Positions 6,891 to 52,401 of a stretch of DNA of 64,000 bases are shown piece by piece. A program made the position numbers and the translations under genes. The notes under the pieces are model-generated. The model did not search any database and was not told the origin of the DNA. It was given only the letters and a program-made list of their open reading frames with translations. The DNA lies in assembly GCA_964371245.1 (NCBI GenBank), contig CAYJKP010000003.1, forward strand, positions 8,986 to 72,985, in the 5' to 3' direction. How positions within the stretch are numbered: position 1 is the first letter of the stretch; each line of letters starts with the position of its first letter. The DNA is from an uncultured Gammaproteobacteria bacterium. GTDB taxonomy: Bacteria; Patescibacteriota; Patescibacteriia; JAHIZJ01.

Positions 6891-7030
6891 TCCGGGCGCG
6901 ACTGTATTTCTGCTCCACCGGCGGACGCTCGTCAATAAGATTCCGTTTCTTTTTGTGCACCGCCTGGCTCAAGGTAAGCCGATAGACCTTCCGATAAATC
7001 GTATTTGAATCATTTTCTATTCATTGCAAT

Positions 7031-7357
7031 ATGAACACCTCACCCACGACAACGCCACATGCTCACTTAAGTCTTGTTATTAACGATTACGGCGACCAGC
7101 TTGGTTTTTCCACGACCGCGAGTTTACCGGATATTATCGTCAACATCATCCGTTATGCCCTCAGTTTTCTCGCGCTTGCCGCCGTGATCATGATAATATT
7201 CGGCGGCTTTCTCTGGTTAGTCTCGGGGGGCGATGAGGAGCGCATCAATTCAGCCAAGCGAACCATTTCTGGCGCGATTGTTGGTCTGATTATTGTTTTG
7301 CTCGCTTGGGCATTCGTCAGTTTCATCGTCGGCGGCGTAACCGGTCAAACTGGCTAG
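7031..7357 (+). CDS. small two-TM membrane protein, hypothetical
   Basis: 108 aa; two hydrophobic helices separated by GGDEERINSAKR. Confidence 0.5.
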   Translation: MNTSPTTTPHAHLSLVINDYGDQLGFSTTASLPDIIVNIIRYALSFLALAAVIMIIFGGFLWLVSGGDEERINSAKRTISGAIVGLIIVLLAWAFVSFIVGGVTGQTG

Positions 7358-7414
7358 CTTCCTTTATTTCTCGTGCGGAACGTAGCGGCGCGCTAATCAT
7401 TAAATGATTTTACT

Positions 7415-8029
7415 ATGCCCTACAACATTCGGCCGAATAAAAAACTGCTCAAGCACACGCTGACAGCCCTGGCCACGCGTGGCATTCAGACTCAATTAAC
7501 CGATACCAGGGATCAGGCGCTTGAAGAATTACGAAAACTTCTTCCCAAAGGTGCCGAACTCATGACGGGCAGCTCGACCACCCTCGAGCAAATTGGGTTT
7601 ACTGATTTATTGAAAAGTGACCAACATCCCTGGAAAAATTTGAAAGCCGCGCTCCTGGCGGAAAAGAATCCGGTCAAACAATCGCTCTTGCGGAAACAAG
7701 CGACGCTGGCCGACTATTATATTGGCAGCGTTCAGGCCATAACGGAAACCGGACAGGTGCTTATTGCCTCGAATACCGGCAGCCAAATACCGGCCTACGC
7801 TTTTTCCAGCCCGCACGTGATCTGGGTGGTCGGAACGCAAAAAATTGTTGCCACACTTGAAGATGGATTACGGCGGATTCGCGACTATTGTTTGCCGCAT
7901 GAGGATCAGCGGATGAAAAAAAACGGCCTCCCGGGAAGTGCGCTTGGTAAAATCTTAATATTTGAGCGAGAAACATCCGCGCGTCGATCACTTCGTATGA
8001 TCTTGGTGAACAAAGTCCTGGGATTCTAA
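7415..8029 (+). CDS. LUD-domain (LutC/YkgG-like) protein
   Basis: 204 aa; overall resemblance to the DUF162/LUD fold (IASNTGSQ... VIWVVGTQKIV); weak assignment. Confidence 0.4.
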   Translation: MPYNIRPNKKLLKHTLTALATRGIQTQLTDTRDQALEELRKLLPKGAELMTGSSTTLEQIGFTDLLKSDQHPWKNLKAALLAEKNPVKQSLLRKQATLADYYIGSVQAITETGQVLIASNTGSQIPAYAFSSPHVIWVVGTQKIVATLEDGLRRIRDYCLPHEDQRMKKNGLPGSALGKILIFERETSARRSLRMILVNKVLGF

Positions 8030-8202
8030 TTCACGTTTCGTTTCATTATTAGACAGAAAAACGTTCTTGCCAGACAGAGCGTTTTTTATATCAATCGTGT
8101 GCTTCTTCAGCGTTGTTTCAGTTTTGCTGTATACACTTATCCACAGCCACCCTTCATTTATCACGTTGAAATATTCATTTCTGATTTATTACTACCACCC
8201 AC

Positions 8203-9828: not shown

Positions 9829-10495
9829 CCATATGACGATTATTATCACAAAAAACCTCAAAAAACACTATCAGCAGGGCAATAAATCAATTCGGGCAGT
9901 TGATGGCGTTGATTTGTCAATCGAATCAGAAGATTTTGCGGTGGTCGTCGGTCCGTCAGGCTGCGGTAAATCGACCTTGCTTCAGCTCATCGGCGGACTC
10001 GACCGGCCGACTGAGGGCACGATTGTCGTGAATAACGTTGATGTCACTCGGGTGAATGACCGAAAATTAACCCAGCTTCGGCGGGAATCGATTGGTTTTG
10101 TCTTTCAAAATTTCAATCTAATTCCGACCCTCACCGCCAGTGAAAACGTCGAAGCCGCCATCGCCAAACACTCTGGCAACGACCGGAAACGAGTAACGGA
10201 ACTTCTCGCCAGCGTCGGTCTGGGGCAACGGATCAATCATCTGCCGACGAAGCTCTCGGGCGGCGAGCAACAGCGCGTTGCTCTCGCGCGCGCCTTAATC
10301 AATGAACCCGCCCTGATCCTGGCTGACGAGCCAACCGGAAATCTCGATAGTGCGACCGGAGAAGAAATATTAAATCTCCTGAAAACGCTGAATCGGGAAA
10401 AGAAGAAAACGATCATGCTGATCACGCACAATGATTACGCAAAGAAATTCGCCACCACCGTCTATCACATGAAAGACGGACAGATACGACAATAA
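9821..10495 (+). CDS. ABC transporter ATP-binding protein (MacB/LolD-like)
   Basis: [38 protein letters not shown]. Confidence 0.9.
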
Positions 10496-33876: not shown

Positions 33877-33975
33877 TGTTATAAACCTTTTTTATTTAGA
33901 CAACCGTTTTATCTTCGGCGATTTCATGGTATAGTCTAGTTCTGAGTTTTTATTTTTTTGCTATATCGACGGGCT

Positions 33976-35358
33976 ATGACAAACGAACAACTCTGGGAAT
34001 CAGTACTTGGAGAATTAGAACTTACCCTAAGTAAAGCAAACTTCACAACCTGGTTTAAAAATACGTTTATTGCTTCGTATGACGAGAATATTGTTGTGAT
34101 CGCGGTACCAAATGCTTTTACAAAAACCTGGTTTGAAAACAAATACAACGCCCCAATTCAAAAAACGCTTCGGCACCTGACAAGCAATGAACATTTAGAG
34201 GTAACCTATAAAATTACCAGCGCCCATAATTACCGGGTGCGCGAACTTCAGTCAAATGATCTGGCTGGGCCATCGGCGGCGGCTCCTGAAACAAGCGCCG
34301 TGCCGGCCGAGGAAATAAACACCGGTCTGAGCGAGGGTGGTTTAAACCCACGCTATTCGTTCGATAATTTCATCGTCGGGAAGGGAAATGAGCTGGCCAA
34401 GGCAGCGGCCGTGGCCGTAGCCAATAAACTCGGGACTGTCTATAACCCGCTTTTTATTTATGGCGGGGTCGGCTTGGGTAAAACCCACCTCATGCAGGCG
34501 ATCGGCAACGAGGTACTGCAGAAGCAAAAAGGGAAACAGACATTGTACGTGACTTGTGAAAAATTTACGAGCGAATTTATCCAGGCGGTTGGACAAGGTA
34601 ATGCAGCTGATTTCAAAAATCGGTATCGCAACGTTGATGTCCTCCTAATTGACGACATTCAATTTCTGGCTGGCAAAGAAGGGACGCAGGAAGAGTTTTT
34701 TCATACGTTTAACGCCCTCCATCACGCCAACAAACAAGTAGTCATTAGCTCTGATCGACCGCCGAAGGCCATCCCAGCGCTCGAAAATAGGCTGATATCG
34801 CGTTTTGAATGGGGGATGATCGTTGATATCTCGCAGCCCGACTTTGAAACGCGTATGGCAATTCTTGAATTAAAATGCTCCAGCAAGAAACGCGTTTTAG
34901 ACCAAAAAATACTGCATTTTATTGCTAATTCTGTCCAAAACAACATTCGCGAACTCGAGGGCGCCCTGAATAGAATCCTCGCCTACCATGAACTTAATAA
35001 CACCGAGCCAACCCTTGATTCGACGCGCGCCCTACTTTCGAACATTACCAGTCGACCAAAGAAAGGAGCGGTCGTCCCAAAACACGTTATTCAAACGGTA
35101 GCGAGTTTTTATGATATTCAGATTGAGGATATTACCGGCGCCAGCCGTAAAAAAGAGCTCGTTGTTCCTCGACAAATGATTATGTTTCTGTTACGCGAAG
35201 AGGTGGGGTGTTCCTACCCGCTGATTGGCCAGGAGCTTGGCGGGCGCGATCACACCACCGCCATGCACGCACACACAAAAATTAAAAACGAATTACAAAC
35301 CAACGAAAAACTCAACCAAGACATACAGCTCATCAAGCAGCGTTTATATAATATGTAA
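33976..35358 (+). CDS. dnaA: chromosomal replication initiator DnaA
   Basis: MTNEQLWESVLGELE N-terminus; AAA+ Walker A GGVGLGKTHL; Walker B LLIDDIQF; C-terminal DNA-binding helix-turn-helix (track start TTG 33958). Confidence 0.95.
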   Translation: MTNEQLWESVLGELELTLSKANFTTWFKNTFIASYDENIVVIAVPNAFTKTWFENKYNAPIQKTLRHLTSNEHLEVTYKITSAHNYRVRELQSNDLAGPSAAAPETSAVPAEEINTGLSEGGLNPRYSFDNFIVGKGNELAKAAAVAVANKLGTVYNPLFIYGGVGLGKTHLMQAIGNEVLQKQKGKQTLYVTCEKFTSEFIQAVGQGNAADFKNRYRNVDVLLIDDIQFLAGKEGTQEEFFHTFNALHHANKQVVISSDRPPKAIPALENRLISRFEWGMIVDISQPDFETRMAILELKCSSKKRVLDQKILHFIANSVQNNIRELEGALNRILAYHELNNTEPTLDSTRALLSNITSRPKKGAVVPKHVIQTVASFYDIQIEDITGASRKKELVVPRQMIMFLLREEVGCSYPLIGQELGGRDHTTAMHAHTKIKNELQTNEKLNQDIQLIKQRLYNM

Positions 35359-35590: not shown

Positions 35591-36694
35591 ATGAAATTCT
35601 CTTGTCTCCAGGAAAATTTAAACAAAGGTCTGGCTCATGTCGGACACCTCGCAAGCAAAAATGTTTCTTTGCCGATTTTGAACAACATCATGATTCAATG
35701 CGAGAACGGAGCTATCAAACTTTCGGCAACGAATCTCGAGGTTGGCGTCAACACGATTATTCGTGGCAAGGTTGAGGCCGAGGGTAAATTAACGATACCA
35801 GCTCGTACCATCTCGGATTATGTTTCGTTGTTGTCTGACTCAAAAGTTGAGGTGGTGAGCGAGGGGCTTGAGCTGAAGATTGCTACCAAGAACGCCCGCA
35901 CAACCATCAAGGGCCAATCCGCCGATGAGTTTCCCTTGATCCCGAAAATAGAGCATAAAAACCCCTACCAAGTTCACACGAAAGACCTCAAAAAGGCTTT
36001 AAATCAAGTGGTTTACGCGGTGGCACAAGATGAATCACGGCCTGAAATAAGTGGTGTTTTTTTCAGTTTTTCGGGTAATTATCTGACGGTTGTGGCGACG
36101 GACAGTTATCGCTTGGCTGAGCGAAAAATTAAACTCGTTCAGCCAGCCAAAGAGACGGTTGAATTAATTGTGCCAACCCGGACGATCCAGGAATTGACAC
36201 GCATTATTGGCGAGGGGGCCGAAACGGTCGAAATGTACTTTACTGAAAATCAAATTCTTTTCGTCTGCGAAGGCATTGAGTTAATCTCTCGGGTGATTGA
36301 GGGGCGCTATCCGGATTATAAACAGATTATTCCGCAAGAACATAAAACACTGGCGACGTTTGATAAAGAAGAAATGATTAAGGCGGTGAAGTCGGCTGCG
36401 TTGTTTTCGAAATCCGGCATCAACGACGTCAGTCTAAAAATCCAACCGGACAAGCATCAGTTGGTTGTGGCTTCAACAAACGCCCAGCTCGGTGAAAGCA
36501 TAACTGAGGTACCAGCCGAAATTGAGGGCGACGCGAACGAGGGTGTATTTAATTATCGTTATCTCATTGACGGTCTTCAGAATCTTGATGTTGACGGCGT
36601 TATGCTGGCGTTAATCGATGGGGCTAATCCCGGCACCCTTCGGGCGAAGAGTGGTACTGACTTTCTCTACATCATTATGCCGATAAAACAGTAG
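35591..36694 (+). CDS. dnaN: DNA polymerase III beta sliding clamp
   Basis: MKFSCLQENLNKGL start, three-domain length 367 aa, position after dnaA. Confidence 0.9.
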   Translation: MKFSCLQENLNKGLAHVGHLASKNVSLPILNNIMIQCENGAIKLSATNLEVGVNTIIRGKVEAEGKLTIPARTISDYVSLLSDSKVEVVSEGLELKIATKNARTTIKGQSADEFPLIPKIEHKNPYQVHTKDLKKALNQVVYAVAQDESRPEISGVFFSFSGNYLTVVATDSYRLAERKIKLVQPAKETVELIVPTRTIQELTRIIGEGAETVEMYFTENQILFVCEGIELISRVIEGRYPDYKQIIPQEHKTLATFDKEEMIKAVKSAALFSKSGINDVSLKIQPDKHQLVVASTNAQLGESITEVPAEIEGDANEGVFNYRYLIDGLQNLDVDGVMLALIDGANPGTLRAKSGTDFLYIIMPIKQ

Positions 36695-41175: not shown

Positions 41176-41261
41176 ATATAACGTTTGCGTATATCTGATG
41201 TCGCGCTAGCGATATGTGTGGAGGCTCCAGAAGAGCCGTAACCAGATATACGCTGTTAGCT
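41176..41261. repeat. attC-like site 1 (terminal, abuts tyrS terminator)
   Basis: ATATAAC-GTTTGCGTAT...ATACGCT-GTTAGCT. Confidence 0.7.
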
Positions 41262-41325
41262 GATCGTATTCCTTTTCTTTTGTTCTCTAGCAAGAGAACG
41301 TGTGAAAAAAATCTTTCAAATTTCT

Positions 41326-41601
41326 TTAATTTTTACTAGTTGCCACTAATATTGCAATAACTGAAACAACTAGAGAAGCAAACGCAATAAAAGTGGAAAT
41401 GAAAGTTAATCTGAGAGTCCGATTGAGATTCTTCAGTTCTGACAACTGCATCGCCTCAGACGCGCTTAGAGTCATTTTACATTTGCTGCATTGAAACACT
41501 GCTGGAACCATTTCACCACCATGACCAGTATTAGTGTTGGGCGATGCCTCTCTTAGTGTTTGCCAATCATGTTTGCATTTAAGTGCTTCCATGGGGTCCA
41601 C
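41326..41601 (-). CDS. cassette ORF: small protein with CxH...CxxC zinc-ribbon-like motif and C-terminal TM helix
   Basis: 91 aa, CKHD...CSKCK, hydrophobic tail. Confidence 0.45.
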   Translation of the reverse strand: MDPMEALKCKHDWQTLREASPNTNTGHGGEMVPAVFQCSKCKMTLSASEAMQLSELKNLNRTLRLTFISTFIAFASLVVSVIAILVATSKN

Positions 41602-41604
41602 GAG

Positions 41605-42588
41605 TTATTTATTAGTTGATATCTTCTCCCAGTCGAAACCAGAATTGAATATATTCTGGAACGGTTGAATAATACCCAAGGTTGTTAAATCACCAATTGT
41701 GCCCCAGGTAGGGATACCAAAAAGGCAAGCCTGATTATTCTGCTTCATTACTGCGAGCCCACCGGAGCTACCTGTATCAATAAGTGCAGTAGTGAAATAA
41801 TTATCTCGTTCCTTGCCCGAAATGATCCCCTCAGTAACAACCATGTGACGCCCCATTCGATACTGGGAATATGCTTCAAATCTTGCCAACATTATATATT
41901 TTTCTAAGTATTCAGCTGTAGGCGAAGGAAATTCTGCGGTGTCCGCTGAACTCGGATAACCAAATACATAAACCTTTTCCCCTATCGGATTCCTAAAATT
42001 ACAAATTGGAAATGATTTCGAATTGTTTTTTAACAAACGTGATTCCAGAATACTTAACAAATCGTCTTTTGTAGGTTTCCCCGTATTTTGTTCCTCTTCG
42101 TTAAGGTAATCGTTTATATCATTTATTTCGTCTGGTATCAGTATTGCCAAGTCAACAATATCACCCCTTCTTACAGAGTCGGAGGAGTATGAGAAACCAA
42201 TTCGATTAGCACCCTGAGAATCACTTTTTTGTATTTTACCTTCCTGTGCGAAATCAACAGAGCAATTATCTAAGTAGGATTTATCGGGATCGTGTAGTTG
42301 AGCAACGTGTTCATTTGTAATAACCACTCTTCTCATTTGCTCACCAGTCTCAAGTAATAGATAGGTTCCAGATCCAGCGACAATACCCTGATATTCCCCG
42401 TCAATGGTTTTACCAGGACAGATAATTGATCCAATTGACTTTGAAACATTTTTGACTTCGTCCACCGTTAATTCACTACTTACGATAACATATCGGAAAA
42501 TTGCAATATGAAAGAAATAGTCAGCAATAACGAATAAACTTGCAAGTAAAGCTAGTAGAATGTACTTATTTCTAGATAAGGATTTCAT
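41605..42588 (-). CDS. cassette ORF: membrane-anchored trypsin-like (S1) serine protease
   Basis: N-terminal TM; catalytic-triad contexts TNEHV, DLAIL, DTGSSGG. Confidence 0.6.
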   Translation of the reverse strand: MKSLSRNKYILLALLASLFVIADYFFHIAIFRYVIVSSELTVDEVKNVSKSIGSIICPGKTIDGEYQGIVAGSGTYLLLETGEQMRRVVITNEHVAQLHDPDKSYLDNCSVDFAQEGKIQKSDSQGANRIGFSYSSDSVRRGDIVDLAILIPDEINDINDYLNEEEQNTGKPTKDDLLSILESRLLKNNSKSFPICNFRNPIGEKVYVFGYPSSADTAEFPSPTAEYLEKYIMLARFEAYSQYRMGRHMVVTEGIISGKERDNYFTTALIDTGSSGGLAVMKQNNQACLFGIPTWGTIGDLTTLGIIQPFQNIFNSGFDWEKISTNK

Positions 42589-42656
42589 AGAGAAAGAAAT
42601 TTGATAGATTTTTTACACACTACGGGCGATAGCCCAGAAAAGAAAAGGAATATGCC

Positions 42657-42713
42657 ATATAACGTTTGCGTATCATACGACGTACTAGATATGTCGTATA
42701 TACGCTGTTAGCT
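42657..42713. repeat. attC-like site 2
   Basis: ATATAAC-GTTTGCGTAT-...-ATATACGCT-GTTAGCT; centre is an imperfect palindrome. Confidence 0.75.
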
Positions 42714-42785
42714 GATCGTATTCCTTTTCTTTTGTTCTCTAGCAAGAGAACGTGTGTAAAAAATCTTTCAAATTTCTTTTCGCCT

Positions 42786-44069
42786 TCATTTCAGTAAATC
42801 ATCAAGCTCACAAGAGAGTAATGCCGACTTATTAAGCACGATCTGCTCTTTTGGATTTAGTTTATCTGACGTCATGCGTATAAGCTTTGTTGTGATCGTA
42901 TCACCGAGCATGATTCGGTTAGTTTTCTTGAAATAATTTTCCGTCTTCTGATAAAAAAGCGTGGCATACTGTCTCAATTTATCTTCAGACGGCGGATGAC
43001 TTGTCGCCCCATTGCTTGTAAATTCAATCTTACCTTTTATTTTCTCGCTTTCTTTGGTTGGCAAATTACCTTCGTTAAAATCAATCCAGTAATCGCTCAT
43101 CAAATACATAACGCGAACAAACCCGCCATCTTCTGTTTTGTAGGTATAAATGAAATAGAAATTATCAGGCATTAAGTCGTGGTGCACTCTGATATGCTCT
43201 AATTCTGTAACAGTACGTATTTTGTAATCATCAAGCATCCGCAGATAGCTTTCTCGCCAATTCTGAAGCCAGTTCTCAACGTACATGCGATTTGTAAAAA
43301 GTGGCATAAGGTCCTGCTTGAGATTTTCATCGCTCACTTTATTCATCTGCAGTGTTAGCTTGTCAAAAATCGCCCGTGGATCGTTTACATTAATACCTTT
43401 GGCAACAAGATAATCAATATCAGGAACCACTTTTTTATTCATATACCAAAGAAGGTCGTAGATATCCCTTCCCTTTTCCTCGTACACTGCTTCACCCACA
43501 CCGCGAGTGCCACGCAAAAAAATGGCGGCTATCTTGCTTGCCATCAAAGCAGACATGTTGTAGGTCAAAATAACGAAAGAGAGCTGATCACGGTTCATTG
43601 GTCGACGCTCAGTAACCGTTTTAGGAGCGACAAAATGATTAAGATCTATTTTTACATGGACCTGATTGGACGCGTGACCAAATCCTAATGCTTCGCCAAC
43701 ATGGAATTTTAAAAGGAGCCCTCTGCCGGTCGTTATTTTTATTGTCAGGAAATTTGGATCAGTACCATACGTATCTTTAAAGTGATCCTCTAGCTCCTTT
43801 TTTAGATCTGCTAAAAATGATCCCGTTACAGTATGGGATACTTCAAAATCCAAATCCACTGACATGCGGTCAAGGCCGTGAATGATCCGAAGTGCCGAAC
43901 CCCCATACATCACCCATTTGCGGTATTCAGTATGATGATAAACAAAATTGAGAATGTAAAACTGCAAAGCTTCTTTCAGCTTGTTTCTGCGGGTTTCGGC
44001 ATCAAGATCGCCATAAACGGAGAGCTCATCAAGCTCTCTTTTAAGAATAGTTAGGATTTGTTCACTCAT
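42786..44069 (-). CDS. cassette ORF: AbiEii-family nucleotidyltransferase toxin (type IV TA)
   Basis: MYGGSALRIIHGLDRMSVDLDFEV matches the DUF1814/AbiEii motif GGTAL...RxSxDxDF. Confidence 0.7.
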   Translation of the reverse strand: MSEQILTILKRELDELSVYGDLDAETRRNKLKEALQFYILNFVYHHTEYRKWVMYGGSALRIIHGLDRMSVDLDFEVSHTVTGSFLADLKKELEDHFKDTYGTDPNFLTIKITTGRGLLLKFHVGEALGFGHASNQVHVKIDLNHFVAPKTVTERRPMNRDQLSFVILTYNMSALMASKIAAIFLRGTRGVGEAVYEEKGRDIYDLLWYMNKKVVPDIDYLVAKGINVNDPRAIFDKLTLQMNKVSDENLKQDLMPLFTNRMYVENWLQNWRESYLRMLDDYKIRTVTELEHIRVHHDLMPDNFYFIYTYKTEDGGFVRVMYLMSDYWIDFNEGNLPTKESEKIKGKIEFTSNGATSHPPSEDKLRQYATLFYQKTENYFKKTNRIMLGDTITTKLIRMTSDKLNPKEQIVLNKSALLSCELDDLLK

Positions 44070-44679
44070 GAATATGTCTTTTAATCATGGTATAAAAATT
44101 TTCTCGTTCGTGTGTTTCCATTTCATCAATATCTATTCTTAGTTCCTTGACGAGTACATTAATGTTTTTCAGTCTCATGCCTCGGAGTTGTCGAGTCTTG
44201 AAATACAGCAGATCAAACAGTGCCTTTGAGGGTGAGGCGATAAAAAAATCAAATGGGCCCTTAATCAGTGAGAAGCCTGAAAATAAATCCTTCTTGATGG
44301 ACTGATAGGCAAAGTTTCCTGCTTTTGTCTGGTACTCTCTTGTAACCTTTGGCGTTACTGAGGTTACAGAATGTATAGCTTCCGTTGTGAGATTATAATA
44401 CTGAAGTGCTGCCCATGAACTCACATACGACGGAGTTCGAATAACGTTAGCGAGATAAAACGAATAGGAAACCTTGCCCTTGTTTTTATTATAGATATCC
44501 GAGGATACATATAATGCCCTCTTTAGCTGGAGAATTTCCTTGAATTTTAAGTAGCGGCTGATGTAGGTATCAACCGTAGTGTCCTTAAGCCCTAACTGCA
44601 TACCAAGCTGGTATACAGTGCTTTTACTAAAATAGGGCAAGGTTTTTAGCTGTTCTAAGAGATTTTTTCGGCTTTTCAT
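44062..44679 (-). CDS. cassette ORF: AbiEi-family antitoxin/transcriptional regulator
   Basis: N-terminal wHTH, LKRALYVSSD motif, 8-nt overlap with toxin gene in antitoxin-then-toxin order. Confidence 0.65.
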   Translation of the reverse strand: MKSRKNLLEQLKTLPYFSKSTVYQLGMQLGLKDTTVDTYISRYLKFKEILQLKRALYVSSDIYNKNKGKVSYSFYLANVIRTPSYVSSWAALQYYNLTTEAIHSVTSVTPKVTREYQTKAGNFAYQSIKKDLFSGFSLIKGPFDFFIASPSKALFDLLYFKTRQLRGMRLKNINVLVKELRIDIDEMETHERENFYTMIKRHIHE

Positions 44680-44823
44680 AAATATGACAATAGTGTATCA
44701 GATGTGAAACGTAATGTCAATTCAATGAATACTGAAATCTCCCTACTTGAATGATGTGGGGAAAGAAATTTGAAAGTTTTTTACACATCCCGGGCATCAG
44801 CCCGAAAAGAAAAGGAATATGTC

Positions 44824-44876
44824 AGCTAACGTTTGCGTGTATGCGATGTGATAATATCGTATACACGCTGTTATCG
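44824..44876. repeat. attC-like site 3
   Basis: AGCTAAC-GTTTGCGTGT...ATACACGCT-GTTATCG. Confidence 0.75.
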
Positions 44877-44899
44877 GATGTATCAAATAATTTTCGTCT

Positions 44900-45468
44900 T
44901 CATTGCTGAATGACAAAGAATTTTTCTTCCGGGATTTTGTAGACAGGTAGTTTTTCGCCACGCTTTTCAAGCTCTTCCAAGTCATTTTGTTTTTCTTCCG
45001 TGTAGTGAACAAAAGCTTTGATTCGGAGTATACCGAGGCCATTTCTGACAGTTGTGCCATGGGTGCCTGTGTGGAAATATGAAGAAAGAGCACATGCGCC
45101 CGCTGATGAGCCACTGACGACCTTGCCTTTGATAAGTGCATTAAGGTTTTCAATCGATCTTAGGACGTTGAGTAGCATGTCTGTGTCACCACCACGCATG
45201 TACACCACATGAGTTTCTTGTAGCTGCTCCTGGAAGATTTTAATATCACTGTCTGCACAGATGAACTTCAAGCTCTTTTTGGGCGAAGCGGAAGAAAAAC
45301 GGTCTTTGTCTTGAGCTAAAAGTTTATCCCACTGGTCTCTCTGCCTTGCGAAATAGATACAGAGAATCGTAACAGGATCAGGAAGTCCTTTTGTCATCTC
45401 AATGAAAAATTGTTTGTTGTCCTCTGTGGGTCTGCCAGTTTCACCACCATGGAGGATATACTTTGTCA
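44900..45468 (-). CDS. cassette ORF: S51 peptidase (dipeptidase E / cyanophycinase-like)
   Basis: MTKYILHGGETG N-terminus and nucleophile context SGSSAGA; start taken at the internal Met so the ORF does not run through attC site 4 (track start 45634). Confidence 0.65.
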
Positions 45469-45496
45469 TCACAAGTAGAAAATTATTTGATATTTC

Positions 45497-45586
45497 CGAT
45501 AACGTTTGCGTATATCTGATGCCCCGCTCAGCGGGGTGTGGGTGGATCCGCCTCTGGCGGAGTAACCAGATATACGCTGTTATATG
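45497..45586. repeat. attC-like site 4
   Basis: CGATAAC-GTTTGCGTAT...ATATACGCT-GTTATAT; centre carries CCCCGCTCAGCGGGG and CCGCCTCTGGCGG hairpins. Confidence 0.75.
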
Positions 45587-45696
45587 GTGTATGCTTTTCT
45601 TTTCCCAACGTCTAGTCGGGCTACTTTTCTGCAATGGACAAATTTAATTTTCATGTTGGCAAGGGCGACGTTGGATGTAGCAACCCGTATTGTTTC

Positions 45697-46626
45697 TTAG
45701 GTACTGGTAAAATACTCGGTCAGCACGAAGGTGATCCAAATAAGAAATAAGATAACGCCTTCTTTTTTAGATATTGTTTTTCCTGTACGCATGAAATACG
45801 AAAGGACAAATGAGGCCAGGAGCATGAACGCGCCGGTGACGTAAATAATTTTCTGCGGAAAGGCGAATGGATTGATCATTGAAAGCAGTCCAACCACGAT
45901 TGTTGCGTCGGCCAGCACTGTACCTAAAATATCTCCGACTGCCAGAGAATCGTCGTGCTTTCGGACGGCCTGCAATGAAAACAGCAGTTCTGGTATGGTT
46001 GTGCCAATCCCGACAACGAGCATGCCAACGAGGACGGGCGTAATCCCCAAACTCTGCGCCAGATTCTCGGCTGATGTCACGGTAAAATGTGCACCGACGA
46101 GCAACACGGCCATGCTCGCAAGCAACAACAGGGTATTTCTAAGCCGATCACCTTGACCATCTGCAATCGATTTTGCGTCATGGCCATTCTTGAACGAAAA
46201 GAGATAGAATCCGACGCCGGCAATAATGAGTGCCGCCCCCTCCCAGCGCGAATAGTACCCGTCGAAGCCGAGGAGAATCGGGATCAGAAATAAGAACGGG
46301 TAGAGAATGTTATTTTTCAACACCTTGCTTTCGATTTTAATCCTCCGTCCTGATATGGCGATGATGATGGCGAAGACGAGCGTCAAGTCGGCGACGTTCG
46401 AGCCGAACAACGTCCCCAGGCCAAACGCCGGAATACCCTCAAAGGACGAGTTGATGGCAATAAACGTCTCCGGAAGAATAGAGATGACGGCGACAATGAT
46501 CATGCCGACGGCGTATTTGGATAGGTGAAAGTTTTCCGCCAGACGGACGGCGTATTTGGTTGCAAGGATTGCACCTTTGATGACCAAAAACAGCGAAACC
46601 GACAAAATAAATATGTTTTGTATCAT
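45697..46626 (-). CDS. cassette ORF: Ca2+/cation antiporter (CaCA/YrbG family)
   Basis: Two alpha-repeats (ILPETFIAINS, GTTIPELLFSL), 10 TM, 309 aa. Confidence 0.75.
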   Translation of the reverse strand: MIQNIFILSVSLFLVIKGAILATKYAVRLAENFHLSKYAVGMIIVAVISILPETFIAINSSFEGIPAFGLGTLFGSNVADLTLVFAIIIAISGRRIKIESKVLKNNILYPFLFLIPILLGFDGYYSRWEGAALIIAGVGFYLFSFKNGHDAKSIADGQGDRLRNTLLLLASMAVLLVGAHFTVTSAENLAQSLGITPVLVGMLVVGIGTTIPELLFSLQAVRKHDDSLAVGDILGTVLADATIVVGLLSMINPFAFPQKIIYVTGAFMLLASFVLSYFMRTGKTISKKEGVILFLIWITFVLTEYFTST

Positions 46627-46742
46627 GCGCCGCCCTTCATGTTCATTCCAAGGATGAGAATAGTAACTCTATCCATCATACAATAAATTTGTTCATTGCA
46701 GAAAAGTATTAGGCGTCAGCCGTGAAAAGAAAAGCATATGCT

Positions 46743-46799
46743 ATATAACGTTTGCGTCTCATACGACGTACTTACTATGTCGTATAGACGCTGTTGTCA
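46743..46799. repeat. attC-like site 5
   Basis: ATATAAC-GTTTGCGTCT...ATAGACGCT-GTTGTCA. Confidence 0.75.
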
Positions 46800-46852
46800 G
46801 ATCGTACATTTTTATCTTCAAAGTGAAATTTCTCACGCTAATTACCAAAATT

Positions 46853-48274
46853 TTATTCAGCCGTAGGTTGGAATGTTGAAAGAATTTTACTGTATTCAGG
46901 ATGATCTTGCTCAAAACCCTTAGCCCAAGAAAAAGTGATAAAATTTAATCCAACGGGACAATATGTGGCAAGATATTCAGCAAAACAACTTTCGGTCTGA
47001 CGGGTTACTGCTATCCCGTTTATTTCTAATGACTGCTGGTCGTGATTACAATTATATTTCTCTGCAATATCCGCTGAAGAGGCATTAGCGGGAGCCACAT
47101 CGGGGATCGCGTTGGTTACCGTTACAGCTATTTCAGGGCCAAGTTCGATGCTCGATGTTTCACCTGAATTGGGGGGAATAATAGCCACAAGGTTTGTCTC
47201 GCCATCATTAATAGTCCAATCTGGTGGGTATTGAAACGTAAAATGATAATCTTGGTTTATATATATCTTCCAATCTGAAGCTATTGAGTTCGTATTCAGA
47301 TTTTCAGAGCGATGTTGGTAAATTGGGAGATTGTCCCCATAATCCATTTTTACGTCCGCATGGATGCCATTCCATAATGTCTCCAGCGTGTCATCATGAA
47401 TGCTGTGGTCATATTGGAGAATCAAATTCTGGCCGGTTTTCGAAAGAGGATAAATCTCCTTTGTGATCGTCCCCTGCCACCCAATGGTCGTTTCCGTTTT
47501 CTCCACCTGGCGATGATAGACATACCTGTCACCTTGGAGCGTACCCCAATTCATCATTGTTTTTAAAGCATCTTCTGGAATATCAGCCTTGGGGTCATCT
47601 TCCGATTGCACGGACAAGTTCAACGGAATGGACAACCCGATACTCGAGGTGTCAGGGACCGTATTGCCCTCAGCGTAGAAGCTAAACCTATACACATTTT
47701 CACTCGGATAAGCGTTTTGCGCATGAAAAATATGCTCAGGAATATGAAAGCGCAGACCCGCTTCGTTGAATTCGCGACTGGACGATTGGGCGTACTCGCG
47801 TTCCCAGCGCTCAAGTGCCTGCTCAGTTCTTTCACAGCCAATCAGTATCGTTTGCCAGGTGCAGCTGTTTTTCCAGAGCAGCTTATCCGGATACGCCCGA
47901 ACCGGGATAAAATCCTCACTCGTCCGGCATTGGGAAAGGGGGAAGTAGTAGTAATCGCGAAACTCGGAGTTTCTCCAATGCAACGGGTTGTCCGTGGCAA
48001 TCAAGGTGAGTCCGTTATCCAGAGTTAGGGAAGTCCTGGGTTGGGCATTGATCGCTTCGACTATCGTGGCAAATTGCGTATCTTGGCACACACCCTCTCC
48101 GAGAGTCTTGCTTGTAGATTTGTACTCACCCCATGCTTCAACTTTCGTGTCAATCGCCACATCAAACATGCCAAAGACATCTTTAACGAATCCAACGTAA
48201 TATGTGCCAAGAAATACAGCAATGATTGCCAACGCGACGAGGCCGTACTTTAAAATATGTTTAGGGGTATTCAT
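46853..48274 (-). CDS. cassette ORF: hypothetical secreted/membrane-anchored protein (473 aa)
   Basis: N-terminal TM/signal anchor, W/Y-rich, no known motif. Confidence 0.5.
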   Translation of the reverse strand: MNTPKHILKYGLVALAIIAVFLGTYYVGFVKDVFGMFDVAIDTKVEAWGEYKSTSKTLGEGVCQDTQFATIVEAINAQPRTSLTLDNGLTLIATDNPLHWRNSEFRDYYYFPLSQCRTSEDFIPVRAYPDKLLWKNSCTWQTILIGCERTEQALERWEREYAQSSSREFNEAGLRFHIPEHIFHAQNAYPSENVYRFSFYAEGNTVPDTSSIGLSIPLNLSVQSEDDPKADIPEDALKTMMNWGTLQGDRYVYHRQVEKTETTIGWQGTITKEIYPLSKTGQNLILQYDHSIHDDTLETLWNGIHADVKMDYGDNLPIYQHRSENLNTNSIASDWKIYINQDYHFTFQYPPDWTINDGETNLVAIIPPNSGETSSIELGPEIAVTVTNAIPDVAPANASSADIAEKYNCNHDQQSLEINGIAVTRQTESCFAEYLATYCPVGLNFITFSWAKGFEQDHPEYSKILSTFQPTAE

Positions 48275-48335
48275 ACTCTACTTATTATATGTATACATTG
48301 TGTGGAAATGAACGAAATAAGATAAAAATGTATGT

Positions 48336-48444
48336 CTGACAACGTTCTGGTATCATGCGACGTGGTGAGTGAGCGCAGGCGGTAGAATTGTGCGGAGCAC
48401 ACCGCCGGAGCGAACGAATCCATGTAGCATATACCGTGTTGTGC
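48336..48444. repeat. attC-like site 6 (long variable centre)
   Basis: TGACAAC-GTTCTGGTAT...ATATACCGT-GTTGTGC. Confidence 0.7.
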
Positions 48445-48449
48445 GGAGT

Positions 48450-49061
48450 TTACCCGAACGATGTCTGAAGTTCGGACCAAGTAATAACCTTTGCCCAATT
48501 GTGCAGAGGGTAATTATTGAGAATCATCTCTTTCTCTTCGGGCTTGCCGGAATAGACATCAACGCCTTCCTTTAGCACCTTAACATTGTATGCGCGAAAC
48601 GTAAGCTCTTGTGCCGTACAGAAAACACAGCAATCGATTGTGAGTCCGATCAAGACAACCTCGTCTACCTCCTGAGGTGTTCCAATAGTAGAATTAAGCC
48701 AGTTCGTGAACGCTTGAGGATCTTGATATGGCAAGCCGGGTTCTTTCGTGGAATCACCGATATTGTCTCTTGTCCAAATCGGAGAATTCATGCATTTAAT
48801 CCAAATATTCTCCAATTTCACATCAGCAGGAAGCTCTGAAGTGTATCCCTCCTCCCCCGGACGCGTGGAATCATCCAAATCGCCAGGACGAGGTTGTCGA
48901 TAATCCGAAATGATCTCTGCGACTTTAATATTGCGCTCACGCAAGTACGGCACAAGAGTTTGCTTGATAAAAGCAACATTCGGGTGTGGTCGATAATGCT
49001 TGCCACCTTCCGCGCTGAACTCTTTTTGCAAGTCTACAGAGATGATTTTAATAGTCGACAT
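48450..49061 (-). CDS. cassette ORF: isochorismatase-family cysteine hydrolase
   Basis: IISVDLQKEF start and catalytic-Cys context VLIGLTIDCCVFCTAQE. Confidence 0.65.
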   Translation of the reverse strand: MSTIKIISVDLQKEFSAEGGKHYRPHPNVAFIKQTLVPYLRERNIKVAEIISDYRQPRPGDLDDSTRPGEEGYTSELPADVKLENIWIKCMNSPIWTRDNIGDSTKEPGLPYQDPQAFTNWLNSTIGTPQEVDEVVLIGLTIDCCVFCTAQELTFRAYNVKVLKEGVDVYSGKPEEKEMILNNYPLHNWAKVITWSELQTSFG

Positions 49062-49113
49062 TTATTAACGTGAAATTAAGTGATATTGAATTGGAATAGC
49101 GAGGGTAAATTTC

Positions 49114-49176
49114 GCACAACGTTTGCGTATCATGCGCCGTGGAGCGAAGTGGAATGGCGTATATACGCTGTTGTAC
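49114..49176. repeat. attC-like site 7
   Basis: GCACAAC-GTTTGCGTAT...ATATACGCT-GTTGTAC. Confidence 0.75.
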
Positions 49177-49282
49177 GCTGTTCAAAAAATATTTTTCTTT
49201 AGGTATTTAAAACACGCGAAACCAAACCATGACAGTAGGTAACATTTCGGTGGCATTATTTCGTGCTGGAGCCGTGATGCTG

Positions 49283-49813
49283 CTACTGCGCGTTGACCGT
49301 AGAACGATAAAGGTTTTTCGTTAATGCCCACCAGAAGGAGGTTTGAGTAATATTGGGTTGCGAATTAGCATCCTCTTGGAGAGTAATCACATCATCACTG
49401 ATATCTACAACAGTCCATTTACCAGGACTGAATATGTAGGCACCATATTTAGCACTGGACTTTGGAACGCGTAATACCTTTAGTGCGCCATTCTCTTTGT
49501 ATGCTTCAAACGTAGCAAGAACAGATCCGTACCCCCCTTCGGCAATATCAAACGGCTCTTGCTGGGGGGCTAAAGCCGAGTATGCATAGAACTTGAAGGA
49601 TCCGGCAAATGTTTCGCTGGTATTATAGTAGACGCCAAGCAGCACAAAAGCGAATCCGATGAATGCAAATAATCCCGCGACAGCAAGTCCGGTACGCTTC
49701 CAGGGAGTAACGTGTGTTTTAATAACGAGCCACACTATGACAGCTGCGGCGATAACTAGGATCGGTAAAATTACGAACCAGGTAACCATGTTTGTTCCAA
49801 TTTGTTCATTCAT
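49283..49813 (-). CDS. cassette ORF: hypothetical membrane protein
   Basis: 176 aa, two N-terminal TM helices. Confidence 0.45.
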   Translation of the reverse strand: MNEQIGTNMVTWFVILPILVIAAAVIVWLVIKTHVTPWKRTGLAVAGLFAFIGFAFVLLGVYYNTSETFAGSFKFYAYSALAPQQEPFDIAEGGYGSVLATFEAYKENGALKVLRVPKSSAKYGAYIFSPGKWTVVDISDDVITLQEDANSQPNITQTSFWWALTKNLYRSTVNAQ

Positions 49814-49903
49814 AGGTATTTTGTTAAAAATATTGACATATTAAATTTAGAAAAGATGCTCTGGCTACTTTCATAGGTCGCCAGAGCGTGTCAGCCGCTT
49901 CAC

Positions 49904-50275
49904 TTACGGACAGCTTCCACTCCACGGCTCGGGCTCGCCGTCATAGCCGAATTGCAGACAGCCGAGGTGAGTGGTTCCACTCACACACTTCGATGGCCAG
50001 GTATGCGACTCGACGCCGATCCCGTTTACCCAGGCATTTGCGATGTAGCCGCAGCCGGACGAAAGACCGGTGAACGAAATGGTTCTGTAGCCGAAAGGAA
50101 GCGAGACGTTGGTGTCCTCTGCCATCTTCTGACCGTTCTGCCAGATCTGCACGGTGTACGAGACAGACGTCGGCCCCCTGAGCGTGACCTGAGCGGTGTC
50201 GGCCAGAGCGGGAGTGACCTCCCCCGCGATGAAGAATGCTGCGAGAAGCAGGAGCAACACGACTTTCGTTTTCAT
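49904..50275 (-). CDS. cassette ORF: small secreted Cys-containing protein, GC-rich
   Basis: Signal peptide MKTKVVLLLLLAAFFIAGEVTPALA; local GC clearly above neighbours; 8-bp-stem hairpin terminator just downstream (49866-49895). Confidence 0.5.
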   Translation of the reverse strand: MKTKVVLLLLLAAFFIAGEVTPALADTAQVTLRGPTSVSYTVQIWQNGQKMAEDTNVSLPFGYRTISFTGLSSGCGYIANAWVNGIGVESHTWPSKCVSGTTHLGCLQFGYDGEPEPWSGSCP

Positions 50276-50469
50276 TTCAGCCCTCCAAGTTCAACCTGAA
50301 CAGACGACCACTGAGTTTCCGAACAGCTAAAATAACCGTGCCTCCTTTCTCGGCGTTACTCAGCCGATGATGGCCTAGGTTCGAAAGAGCATACTACTTT
50401 AATACTTATTATACTCTGCTAATTCTAGCCAGTCCAGCGGATATTAAAGAAAAATATTTTTTGAATGGC

Positions 50470-50526
50470 GCACAACGTCCGGGTATCATACGCCTGTACT
50501 CGTATGGCGTATATACCCTGTTATCG
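50470..50526. repeat. attC-like site 8
   Basis: GCACAAC-GTCCGGGTAT...ATATACCCT-GTTATCG. Confidence 0.75.
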
Positions 50527-50548
50527 GATGTTAAGAAAATTTTTCCGT

Positions 50549-50872
50549 TTACTCCAGGCGAACATCATCTTCCTTCTTAAACTCTGGCGAGCAAACAAGA
50601 AAAATTTTCATTTTACCCACAAAGTTGTAGGCGGTATTTATAGGTATAAATACAACATCGTCTCTTTTGACAGAATATTTTTCTTCTTCAATAAAAAAGT
50701 CACCAGATCCTTCAGCAATATAGTAAATTCTGTCTTCATTCAAACACTTCACTTTTCCATGATTACCGTTTATCTCAATTAGCGCACCACTATATTGCTG
50801 CGTGAGTTTATACTCCTTAATATTCATTGGGCCGACTTTTTTGTTGTTTGTTAGTTCGCTAGCAATATACAT
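50549..50872 (-). CDS. cassette ORF: cupin-domain protein
   Basis: 107 aa, double-stranded beta-helix pattern (...YYIAEGSGDF...DVVFIP...). Confidence 0.5.
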   Translation of the reverse strand: MYIASELTNNKKVGPMNIKEYKLTQQYSGALIEINGNHGKVKCLNEDRIYYIAEGSGDFFIEEEKYSVKRDDVVFIPINTAYNFVGKMKIFLVCSPEFKKEDDVRLE

Positions 50873-50902
50873 ATGAATTGATTTATAATATTTTCTTAAT
50901 TT

Positions 50903-50985
50903 CCGATAACGGGCCGCGGCTGATGCGACGTGGCCGGAGCCCCGCTTTGCGGGGTGACGGACATGTTCGCATAGGCGCTGTTGTG
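50903..50985. repeat. attC-like site 9 (between first cassette and recombinase; GC-rich centre)
   Basis: CGATAAC-GGGCCGCGG...GCATAGGCGCT-GTTGTGC; centre has a CCCCGCTTTGCGGGG hairpin. Confidence 0.6.
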
Positions 50986-51032
50986 CGATGTCGCAGCAGC
51001 GACGAGCAGAACAGCGACGGTAGGCGCGGCCC

Positions 51033-51173
51033 GTTGTGGCGAGGAGCGAAGCGATTTCGCCACAACTAGTTATTATGCGTACTTAAGGCCTATTATGCCC
51101 CTATTATTGCATGTTTTGCGTAATAGTGCTAGTTTATTAGCGACGGGAATATTTTATCCGTTATTTTTATTTT
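51033..51173. promoter_or_regulatory. candidate attI / cassette promoter region
   Basis: Perfect 10-bp inverted repeat GTTGTGGCGA...TCGCCACAAC (51033-51066), then two direct TGCGTA repeats (51076-51081, 51117-51122) resembling the attC L-box, in AT-rich DNA abutting the recombinase start. Confidence 0.35.
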
Positions 51174-51992
51174 ATGACCGTTCAAACCCACATTGACCAG
51201 ACAGTCAGAGAGCTGAAAATACGCAACTACAGTCCGAAAACCGTCAAAGCCTATGTCTACGGAATTCGGGAATACCTGATTTACAAAAATACGGATTTTC
51301 ATGTGTACAGCGAAGAAAGCGTTAAAGATTACCTCCATATGCTGGAACAGAGGGGCGTGTCGGCGCAAACCAGAAATGTGTGCCTAAACGCGATAAAATT
51401 CTTTTACTGTGCCGTTGTGCGCTCCGTGTCCGGCGTCGAGGTGCGTTCGGCGAAAAAAAGTAGGAGCCTGCCGGTCGTGCTTTCCCGGGATGAAATAAAG
51501 ACTATAGTTGATAGCACGCGAAACGCCAAGCATCGGCTGCTGATCTCTCTGGCTTACGGCGCCGGCTTGCGGGTCAGCGAGGCGGTGAATCTGCGAACGG
51601 GCGACATCGATACGAATGAGCTGACGGTGCGGGTTCAGGGAGGCAAGGGCAATAAAGACCGGCTGACGCTGTTTCCTGGCCGCCTGGCGGATGATATGAG
51701 AAATATGCAGGCCGGAAAAAGCGCTGATGATTTTGTGTTTGCCAGCGAACGCGGTGGCCCCTTGACCGCGAGAACCGCTCAGAAAATATTCGAACAGGCG
51801 CTGGCCAGATCCGGCATTAAAAAAAACGCGACCTTCCACAGCCTGCGGCACAGTTTTGCCACGCACCTGCTGGAAAACGGCGTTGATATACGGTACGTTC
51901 AGGAATTACTCGGCCATAGTAATATCAGGACGACGCAGCTGTACACACAGGTTACAAATCCGATGTTGAGAAACATAAAAAGCCCGCTGTAA
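51174..51992 (+). CDS. tyrosine site-specific recombinase, IntI-like N-terminal half but without the IntI-specific extra domain (Xer-length catalytic half)
   Basis: 272 aa; YSPKTVKAYVYGIREYL, SRSLPVVLSRDEI, KHRLLISLAYGAGLRVSEAVNLR, GKGNKDR, LRHSFATHLL, LLGHSNIRTTQLYT (catalytic Y); ~60 aa between GKG..R and HxLRH. Confidence 0.75.
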   Translation: MTVQTHIDQTVRELKIRNYSPKTVKAYVYGIREYLIYKNTDFHVYSEESVKDYLHMLEQRGVSAQTRNVCLNAIKFFYCAVVRSVSGVEVRSAKKSRSLPVVLSRDEIKTIVDSTRNAKHRLLISLAYGAGLRVSEAVNLRTGDIDTNELTVRVQGGKGNKDRLTLFPGRLADDMRNMQAGKSADDFVFASERGGPLTARTAQKIFEQALARSGIKKNATFHSLRHSFATHLLENGVDIRYVQELLGHSNIRTTQLYTQVTNPMLRNIKSPL

Positions 51993-52029: not shown

Positions 52030-52401
52030 TTAATCAGAAAAATATTCATGCCCCAGACTCACCTCGTTCAGGCTCATCGCCCGCTGGTGTTCCGGCGGAT
52101 AGATTTTGATGATGATAAACCTGCCGGATGTTGTTTTCGTCTCCGCGTGGATAGTCTGCTCAACGATCAGACAGTGGCCCCAGTACAGCCACTTATCGTC
52201 AATATTGTGCACCAGAAAAACGCGGCAGGGCGGGGAATGATATACCCGCATATTCGGCTTGTCATGAAAATCAAAAACGCGGCCTTTGAAATCATCGGCC
52301 GTGAATGGTTTCTTCAGGTGCGCCTCCAGCGTCAGCTCAGGCGGAAACCCCTGGGCGGTCGTAATCTGGAGCGTGTCGTTAAATTCAATATAGCTGCCCA
52401 T
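52030..52401 (-). CDS. hypothetical protein
   Basis: 123-aa ORF, no recognisable motif. Confidence 0.45.
   Translation of the reverse strand: MGSYIEFNDTLQITTAQGFPPELTLEAHLKKPFTADDFKGRVFDFHDKPNMRVYHSPPCRVFLVHNIDDKWLYWGHCLIVEQTIHAETKTTSGRFIIIKIYPPEHQRAMSLNEVSLGHEYFSD

Follow-up and report, generated by a model that had tools for sequence, protein, structure and literature searches.

Can a reduced bacterium keep an integron-type platform of gene cassettes, served by a recombinase without the domain which defines the integron integrases? This question is raised by a stretch of 64,000 nt, contig CAYJKP010000003.1 at positions 8,986 to 72,985, which we will call the window. It belongs to Patescibacteria, or candidate phyla radiation (CPR), as judged by homologs of its tyrosyl-tRNA synthetase (TyrRS). 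Nine imperfect palindromes with genes between them lie upstream of a gene for a tyrosine recombinase of 272 amino acids (aa). A preliminary description, made from the letters alone, saw an integron-like cassette array in them. We consider, with a probability of about 78%, that the locus is a chromosomal site-specific cassette platform of the integron type, served by the 272-aa recombinase. It has the anatomy and the population behaviour of an integron, but it is outside the integron family by the domain of its integrase and by the way in which its sites mark the strand.

Hairpin sites and putative docking junction

The nine sites are found on the + strand, in positions 41176-50986 (Table 1). 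All of them have the frame xxxxAAC-G-(3 nt)-stem...loop...stem-T-GTTxxxx, in which AAC and GTT are invariant: the single frame noticed in the preliminary description is present in every site. It was also right in their existence, strand and positions, while the two lengths which it gave as 90 and 109 are 89 and 108 nt. When the + strand is folded, the nine sites have a bulge of 3 nt (TTT, or TCC/TCT) on the 5' arm, and five of them have an additional bulge of a single C on the same arm. The fold z-scores go from -1.6 to -5.4. Site 1, the most distal, lies directly beside the tyrS terminator; its loop is long and branched.

We have aligned the nine sites with four others from different genomes. 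In this alignment of 13 sites the 15 stem pairs are 97% paired and seven pairs show compensatory double changes; none of 500 shuffles matches the observed values. A plain scanner for AAC...GTT stems was too permissive, with 13 matches per strand, and it was replaced by a covariance model built from the same alignment, which we call R1. This model recovers the nine sites at 53–83 bits and finds no further locus in 64 kb; the sole other match, with 23 bits, is the reverse strand of site 3 itself. The sequence of the L-stem varies from site to site, yet it remains self-complementary. The AAC-G arm has 3–4 extra nt, an asymmetry common to 82 sites, which come from 31 loci. Both features are predicted by selection on a folded strand and not by a duplex motif to which a protein binds. 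Selection acts on intrastrand pairing. A scan for terminators found none, and Rfam at gathering thresholds found only two tRNAs in the whole window, with no known RNA family at the hairpin sites.

A junction of a different kind is found between site 9 and the recombinase gene, 108 nt upstream of its start codon. Its left box, GATTTCGCCACAAC, is the tenth of the array, and its pairing partner is the right box of site 9. It is joined to TAGTTATTATGCG, after which there are three more TATTATGC-like copies. The sequence which follows TAGTTATTATGCG has the repeats CTATTATGCC and CTATTATTGCA and an inverted TGCGTAATAG. The motif xxxxAAC/T-N-GTTATTATGCG precedes the recombinase gene in the window, in 16 CPR loci and in the related contig L105. 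The junction has the position and the form expected of an attI site and would thus be the docking site of the platform. A consensus scan for promoters and terminators in this region gave nothing useful.

Cassettes and the pairing of their ends

The eleven open reading frames (ORFs) found between the sites are, every one of them, on the - strand, in agreement with the preliminary description. When all the loci studied are taken together, the cargo ORF is opposite to the AAC-G strand in 39 of the 41 cassettes with a dominant ORF. The GC content differs between cassettes, as had been reported: it is 0.35–0.48 in the eight which carry ORFs and 0.67 in the ninth. It is 0.51 in the rest of the window and 0.52 in the recombinase gene. 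By this contrast the platform looks resident and its cargo foreign. Among the functions proposed for the cargo, the AbiEi/AbiEii pair (PADLOC), peptidase E (Peptidase_S51 in Pfam) and the CaCA antiporter (Na_Ca_ex in Pfam) stand; the trypsin-like protease, the isochorismatase and the cupin are weak matches, below the Pfam cut-offs. None of the other ORFs could be assigned to a family. Units without any ORF, like cassette 9, also adjoin the recombinase in loci L034, L040 and L020.

The ends of the cassettes are complementary. The right flank of each site is the reverse complement of the left flank of the next site over 25–32 nt, with a constant mismatch of 2 nt placed 9–10 nt from the triplet. 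Over the 27 nt outside AAC/GTT there are on average 16.6 matches between a right flank and the next left flank, 10.1 between the two flanks of the same site and 9.4 in other pairs. In a permutation test the observed sum was reached in 1 of 100,000 cases. The pairing across cassettes had been claimed for 7-mers only: it is real and covers about 27 nt, with the exception of cassette 1. When a cassette is closed into a circle, both ends and the core are predicted to form one hairpin of 100–170 nt. The predicted energies are -26 to -42 kcal/mol for the circles; within the array these cores give -14 to -35, so that closing would stabilise the hairpin by 5–19 kcal/mol. The arms of about 27 nt are a new element of the locus with respect to the preliminary description, as are the tenth AAC box with its attI-like junction, the ninth cassette without ORF and the absence of pairing in cassette 1.

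Crossover point and exchange of cassettes between genomes

Duplicated units are found in L034 and in L020, which is a complete Wolfebacteria genome. The two copies are identical from AAC through core, right box and spacer up to the next AAC. Immediately outside these bounds they are unrelated, and in each pair one of the copies is next to the docking motif. A similar picture is given by the CaCA cassette, which is common to the window and L105. It is 86.7% identical over 1189 nt, from the AAC of the left site to the AAC(GTTT) of the right one; the flanking genes for a penicillin-binding protein (PBP), tyrS, the recombinase and galT are 67–71% identical. The neighbours of this cassette and its rank in the array differ in the two genomes. 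The cysteine-hydrolase cassette recurs, again with other neighbours, in the R1-type array of L092, with 82% amino-acid and about 80% DNA identity. In this case the similarity begins at the right box GTTGTGCG and ends at the left box GCACAAC.

The bounds of the duplicated and shared cassettes define the mobile unit as C-core-GTTxxxx...cargo...xxxxAA, with the hairpin 3' of the ORF. Read from these alignments, the crossover is located within the conserved AAC(G), in one box only. The crossover, the ORF orientation, the 3' position of the site and the position of the recombinase are therefore as in a classical integron.

The cysteine hydrolase has other homologs, with 72–77% identity, in DPANN (Woesearchaeota, Pacearchaeota, Nanoarchaeota; L094, L096) and in other CPR. 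They are found in ordinary chromosomal contexts without flanking sites. They suggest that genes may have passed between CPR and DPANN.

Sister genomes and wider distribution

The place between tyrS and galT is occupied in different ways in related genomes. In L104, with 87% identity in TyrRS, there is one methyltransferase cassette and a docking remnant in which AAC has decayed to AAT; the recombinase gene is gone. Its flanks are collinear with the window up to site 1 (85% DNA identity) and from position 52040 on (92%). In L106 (TyrRS 77%) tyrS is directly beside galT, with nothing between. In contrast L105 (TyrRS 74%) has at the same place eight cassettes, the CaCA one in common with the window, six R1 sites and a recombinase which is 64% identical. 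L107 (TyrRS 72%) has yet other cassettes, and its contig stops before galT. The preliminary description had considered that sister genomes might carry the same genes in the same order without the palindromes: what we find between the same flanks are different cassettes, a single one or none. On these sequences, cassettes are shown to turn over and to exchange between genomes. Two peculiarities of these contigs may be mentioned. Positions 11251-12315 of L104 are a fossil platform. In L105, positions 5790-6350, a hairpin site is split into halves by about 500 nt with a 133-aa ORF, which corresponds either to an insertion in the loop or to a gene-bearing loop.

A scan with a recombinase profile, taking one genome per species, gave 80 loci. 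Wherever a CPR locus has 1 kb or more of sequence upstream of a homologous recombinase, one or more R1 sites with the same polarity are found there. The 5–10 kb available for a locus contain as many as six of them: six in L030, five in L089 and four in L034, L026 and L020. With few exceptions, the related arrays also show the pairing of each right flank with the next left flank. Across many genomes the arrays are linked to the docking motif and to this family of recombinases. As a separate observation, L014 has in positions 6876-10000 a single cassette of 3.1 kb with several larger ORFs on the cargo strand.

Many contigs of CPR metagenome-assembled genomes end 100–600 nt upstream of the recombinase gene (L010-L013, L018, L019, L021, L024-L029, L031, L035, L037, L038, L040, L043 and L056). 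In L038 and L040 a hairpin site is found right at the end of the contig. The assemblies seem to break within the arrays, just upstream of the recombinase gene.

Outside CPR, arrays of the R1 type adjoin recombinases which also have no insertion and are 37–41% identical to that of the window. They are found in Flavobacteriia (L044, L045, L049, L058, L059), Spirochaetia (L079, L041, L052) and Paenibacillaceae (L053, L069). In these arrays the recombinase is co-oriented with the cassettes and the pairing across cassettes is present. Near the best plasmid-borne relative, from Persicobacter, R1 found no sites. In a literature search we found no integrons or attC arrays described for Patescibacteria/CPR; its coverage was incomplete and an earlier description is possible. 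The IntegronFinder papers report no integrons in CPR.

The recombinase

The catalytic residues R133, K158, H222, R225, H248 and Y257 are intact and are invariant across the family. We have judged the affinity of the protein by profile scores and by its ranks in PDB and fold comparisons. The NCBIfam model NF040815 (XerA_Arch) is reached on the borderline, with 220.1 bits for a cut-off of 220. Both integron integrase models are missed: TIGR02249 gives 218.5 bits in two pieces, with a cut-off of 265, and NF011946 gives 151.5 bits, with a cut-off of 435. XerC and XerD give 188.7 and 183.9 bits, with cut-offs of 335 and 330. VchIntIA (2a3v) is the closest solved relative in the sequence comparison, and also in a Foldseek search with a model whose predicted local distance difference test (pLDDT) is 84; XerA is next. 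A full-length alignment to Pyrococcus XerA gives 144 bits.

The alignment with VchIntIA has a large gap, since query residues 172-200 are opposite IntI residues 174-245. Query residues 7-272 correspond to 311 codons in IntI1, and the AlphaFold2 model has only a loop where the IntI-specific domain would be. A minimal recombinase divergent from the array, as it was described, is indeed present, but strictly speaking it is no IntI, since the IntI-specific domain is absent. Nor does it look like a XerC/D resolvase accompanied by dif: the IntI and XerA models outscore XerC/D, and about 6 kb separate the array from dnaA. The family is large, with more than 7,800 homologs (E < 1e-20) of about 270 aa, which are 60–66% identical across CPR classes. 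Smyshlyaev et al. 2021 have placed the recombinases of candidate phyla in a Xer-related subgroup, 'Cand' (PMC8138268).

Genomic setting

The array sits between tyrS, whose identity was confirmed, and galT, about 6 kb from dnaA, according to synteny with annotated sister contigs. The gene order at the locus, also from synteny, is rnpA-yidC / dnaA-dnaN-dciA-PBP-tyrS. The genes dnaA (33958-35358) and dnaN (35591-36694) were identified by collinearity with the annotated contig L104. The cumulative GC skew has its minimum at about 24–29 kb in the window. Over 64 kb the skew is dominated by gene orientation and alone could not place origin or terminus: the synteny of dnaA decided. From the placement of dnaA-dnaN and the skew minimum we conclude that the window spans the replication origin.

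Two other ORFs of the window deserve mention. One of 2874 aa is found in positions 11976-20600 on the + strand. The other has 123 aa and no family assignment; it lies between the recombinase gene and galT (52030-52401, - strand), is kept in L104 with 92% DNA identity and is absent from L106, where the locus is empty. It may belong to the platform.

Table 1. Features of the array, with positions in the window. Lengths of sites are measured from 7-mer to 7-mer; scores are those of model R1.
Feature	Position	Strand	Description
Hairpin site 1	41176-41261	+	86 nt; AAC 41180, GTT 41255; 83.4 bits; -19 kcal/mol, z -3.9
Cassette 1	41182-42662	-	91-aa ORF 41326-41601; weakly trypsin-like 327-aa ORF 41605-42588; GC 0.385
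Hairpin site 2	42657-42713	+	57 nt; AAC 42661, GTT 42707; 65.5 bits
Cassette 2	42663-44829	-	AbiEii 42786-44069 and AbiEi 44062-44679; PADLOC 5e-29 and 2e-37
Hairpin site 3	44824-44876	+	53 nt; AAC 44828, GTT 44870; 63.3 bits
Cassette 3	44830-45502	-	Peptidase S51 44900-45469; Pfam PF03575 7.5e-11; gene called in L001
Hairpin site 4	45497-45585	+	89 nt; AAC 45501, GTT 45579; 73.1 bits; long branched loop
Cassette 4	45503-46748	-	CaCA (Na_Ca_ex) antiporter 45697-46626; Pfam
Hairpin site 5	46743-46799	+	57 nt; AAC 46747, GTT 46793; 60.7 bits
Cassette 5	46749-48342	-	473-aa protein 46853-48274, no family assignment
Hairpin site 6	48337-48444	+	108 nt; AAC 48341, GTT 48438; 62.8 bits
Cassette 6	48343-49119	-	Cysteine hydrolase/isochorismatase-like 48450-49061
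Hairpin site 7	49114-49176	+	63 nt; AAC 49118, GTT 49170; 64.1 bits
Cassette 7	49120-50475	-	176-aa membrane-like ORF 49283-49813; 123-aa secreted-like ORF 49904-50275
Hairpin site 8	50470-50526	+	57 nt; AAC 50474, GTT 50520; 52.9 bits
Cassette 8	50476-50909	-	Weakly cupin-like ORF 50549-50872 (50549-50827 in L001 call); GC 0.346
Hairpin site 9	50904-50986	+	83 nt; AAC 50908, GTT 50980; 54.2 bits; GC-rich, most divergent
Cassette 9	50910-51065		156 nt, no ORF, GC 0.67; start GTTGTGCGATGTCGC pairs with end GCGATTTCGCCACAAC
attI-like junction	51058-51126	+	Tenth AAC box (AAC 51064-51066) fused, without hairpin, to TAGTTATTATGCG
Tyrosine recombinase	51174-51992	+	272 aa, IntI/XerA-like; Phage_integrase and SAM-like N-terminal domains

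Comparison with known systems

As a control we have used the class 1 integron of a Serratia plasmid (L090), turned in order to put intI1 on the + strand. The layout is the same: the cassettes are on the - strand, the + strand reads GCCTAAC-G...GTTAGAC and the docking junction is GCCTAA/C-TTTGTTTT. The divergent recombinase, the docking site without hairpin and the one-directional array of mostly single genes are also features of sedentary chromosomal integrons, such as the superintegron of Vibrio cholerae. Other features are common to classical integrons: the imperfect AAC...GTT palindrome 3' of each ORF, the AA/C crossover on the antisense strand with AAC-G in the site and AAC/T at the docking junction, and the complementarity between the start and the end of a cassette. 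The cargo is also similar, with toxin-antitoxin and abortive-infection genes, foreign GC content and fast turnover.

The differences are in the recombinase and in the details of the sites. IntI proteins have about 320–340 aa, and the recombinase of the window with its 272 aa has no IntI-specific domain or I2 helix. An attC site is defined by extrahelical bases on the R''-L'' arm and by a roughly symmetric central spacer (Bouvier et al., PMC2727003). When we folded class-1 attCs on the equivalent strand, their bulges, T and G, were on the 3' arm and the spacer was about 5 x 4 nt. The spacer of the window sites is 4 x 1 nt (4–6 against 1–3 in related sites), compared with about 5 x 4–5 in classical sites. 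Unlike classical attCs, the window sites are without conserved G/T extrahelical bases, and their stems continue for about 27 bp past the crossover with a conserved mismatch of 2 nt.

In size and two-domain architecture the recombinase is like the archaeal XerA/'Cand' proteins (NF040815). However, XerA acts at a single terminus dif, whereas the gene of the window is at the origin, beside nine hairpin sites and a docking site, and is absent or lost at the locus in close relatives. The non-CPR relatives without insertion, taken with the 'inverted-integrase' integrons of Spirochaetes, share with the window the site frame, its polarity to the ORFs and the pairing across cassettes. They differ from CPR, where the recombinase is divergent, in having a recombinase gene which points with the cassettes. 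The pdif modules of Acinetobacter and the integrative mobile elements exploiting Xer (IMEX), such as the CTX phage, are likewise small sets of genes between recombinase sites; in CTX a folded single strand is the substrate of Xer. The pdif sites are alternating duplex sites of 28 bp, whereas the window has hairpins of 53–108 nt in one orientation with a docking site, and they are probably not at dif.

Arguments against a cassette platform

A number of observations weigh against our interpretation of the locus as an integron-type platform. The unpaired bases of the window sites are on the cleaved AAC-G arm, as a mirror image of a classical attC, so that the choice of strand cannot work as in IntI. 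The preliminary description had correctly predicted unpaired bases in the folded strand, but placed them as in attC sites. Model R1 does not recognise class-1 attCs, with a best match of 9 bits. The reciprocal comparison with an attC covariance model, which had been suggested earlier, was made with a home-made proxy, R2, built from eight loop-trimmed class-1 attCs. It finds held-out class-1 attCs at 38–41 bits. In the window it reaches site 3 only, marginally above noise (16.3 bits, E 0.02, + strand, same register); the other eight sites are at background.

The recombinase is without the IntI-specific domain of about 35–45 aa (I2 helix). This additional domain defines integron integrases (PMC9668308, PMC4889954), and archaeal integrons have been defined by IntIs which possess it (PMC9668308). 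It is held to be necessary for attC recombination (PMC9668308, PMC7790495) and to be the innovation that permitted single-strand recombination (PMC7790495). The conservation of the family also indicates that the recombinase may have a housekeeping role.

There are also irregularities in the arrays. In cassette 1 there is no pairing between the two ends (right box of site 1 and left box of site 2), which is not predicted by a simple model. Sites 1 and 2 have identical left boxes and, on their right, a direct repeat of 82 nt which is 99% identical (41246-41327 and 42698-42779): cassette 1 is therefore anomalous. Homologous cassettes can differ in their hairpin core. The most distal left box is different in the window and in L104, though both abut the same chromosomal base; a simple model would not lead one to expect this either. 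No promoter-like sigma-70 match was found on the - strand of the docking region, where CPR promoters may differ from the consensus. Finally, contigs L001-L009 have an identical recombinase and the same array, with no variation: they are one population with one array and are thus uninformative in this respect. A side observation on the right arm of sites 1 and 2 is that its module of about 75 nt is also present in L023.

Other explanations

The palindromes might be inverted half-sites of the Xer type, exchanged by two strands as in the Xer-dependent dif modules, with an idle hairpin. A recombinase without the I2 domain, which has been tied to single-strand attC recombination (PMC7790495), would be natural in this case. 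So would the fact that the XerA equivalog cut-off is reached, and that the docking region of several loci is a short palindrome of the duplex type. Nevertheless we find this explanation unlikely. A duplex motif would keep its sequence, whereas the L-stems vary and stay self-complementary, with seven compensatory pairs, and an asymmetry of 3–4 nt with fixed polarity to the ORFs and the recombinase is meaningless in a duplex. The sites all have one direction, unlike the alternating pdif, and an excised circle would bear a hairpin of 100–170 nt with a perfect stem. We see even less probability in a housekeeping Xer protein whose dif is the docking site, with cassettes piled up there as IMEX-like elements. 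A xer gene adjoining dif is known for XerS. The match to XerA at the cut-off, the abundance and high conservation of the family in CPR and the filing of the 'Cand' subgroup as Xer-related (PMC8138268) go in the same direction. However the locus is only about 6 kb from dnaA-dnaN-dciA, with the skew minimum nearby: it is at the origin, and a site for the resolution of dimers belongs at the terminus, which makes the docking site an improbable dif. Furthermore the closest sister has lost the recombinase gene at the locus and another one has a clean tyrS-galT junction. The IntI model also scores higher than XerC and XerD, in spite of the missing domain.

A classical integron overlooked by annotation tools would account for much of what we see: the geometry, AAC/GTT, the AAC-G and AAC/T junctions, the 3' site, the toxin-antitoxin cassette and the turnover all fit, and VchIntIA is the best relative in PDB. 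It is nevertheless most improbable, with an IntI-specific domain which is absent, scores far below the cut-offs of TIGR02249 and NF011946, and sites without R''-L'' extrahelical bases, with a strongly asymmetric spacer and a stem extension of about 27 bp past the R box. The proxy attC model misses eight of these nine sites and yet finds the held-out class-1 attCs. As for repetitive extragenic palindromes (REP), miniature inverted-repeat transposable elements (MITE) or terminators unconnected with the recombinase, we give them practically no credit. It is true that the palindromes are intergenic and 3' of genes, but they have no copy outside the array in 64 kb and the terminator scan finds none. 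They pair across genes, while the pairing of the boxes within a site is at background: the argument of the preliminary description, that independent REPs or MITEs would not pair across cassettes, is borne out by the 16.6 matches given above. Besides, they have a fixed polarity beside homologous recombinases in dozens of genomes, and the units which they bound are exchanged between genomes.

How the platform would work

The cassette platform, which we prefer to these explanations, would consist of the 272-aa recombinase, a docking site without hairpin and a row of nine cassettes leading away from the recombinase gene. Each of them would have the form C-[hairpin core]-GTTxxxx...cargo ORF(s)...xxxxAA, with the cargo on the - strand. 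The recombinase would cut the strand with xxxxAA/C-G, which is the + strand of the window, antisense to the cargo. At the docking site the crossover would be at AA/C, between positions 51065/51066. A site would act when folded as a hairpin, and the partner for the exchange of its cut strand would be either a second hairpin site or the docking site. Exchange between two sites would give a circular cassette whose ends close into one long hairpin. Exchange between a circle and the docking site would insert the cassette beside the recombinase gene. The recombinase as catalyst, a single-stranded substrate, the exchange of one strand and the mode of expression of the cargo are parts of this scheme which we infer. 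Given a cassette platform, it is likely that its substrate is a folded single strand.

A variant of the integron principle of this kind is probably widespread. A broader proposal can be made tentatively, and we would hold it a little short of an even chance. Insertion-less IntI/XerA-like recombinases, with their own hairpin site, could be a second, uncatalogued major class of integrons, near-universal in Patescibacteria and also present in Flavobacteriia, Spirochaetia and Paenibacillaceae, whose phyla have few classical integrons or none. Hairpin-cassette recombination would then take place without the I2 domain, either as an ancestral state or with a mirror-image marking of the strand which arose independently.

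Significance

The biology of integrons has two pillars: an extra domain which reads the extrahelical bases of attC, and a range centred on Proteobacteria. In the locus described here the logic of the integron is present without the extra domain, with a site which is marked in the opposite way. Its host belongs to a reduced, episymbiotic lineage, assumed to be poor at gene acquisition. The arrays would explain why CPR assemblies tend to break just upstream of the recombinase gene. In a 2026 permafrost study 97% of the contigs with 'integron-type' recombinases were not complete integrons by IntegronFinder (PMC13323075). If the platform is active, a large number of cassette arrays escape the integron finders now in use. 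It would also be a natural test of an open question, namely how Xer-like recombinases could give rise to the recognition of single-strand sites (PMC4792948, PMC7790495). CPR bacteria would then have a dedicated device for gene capture, with defence, transport and hydrolase genes as cargo.

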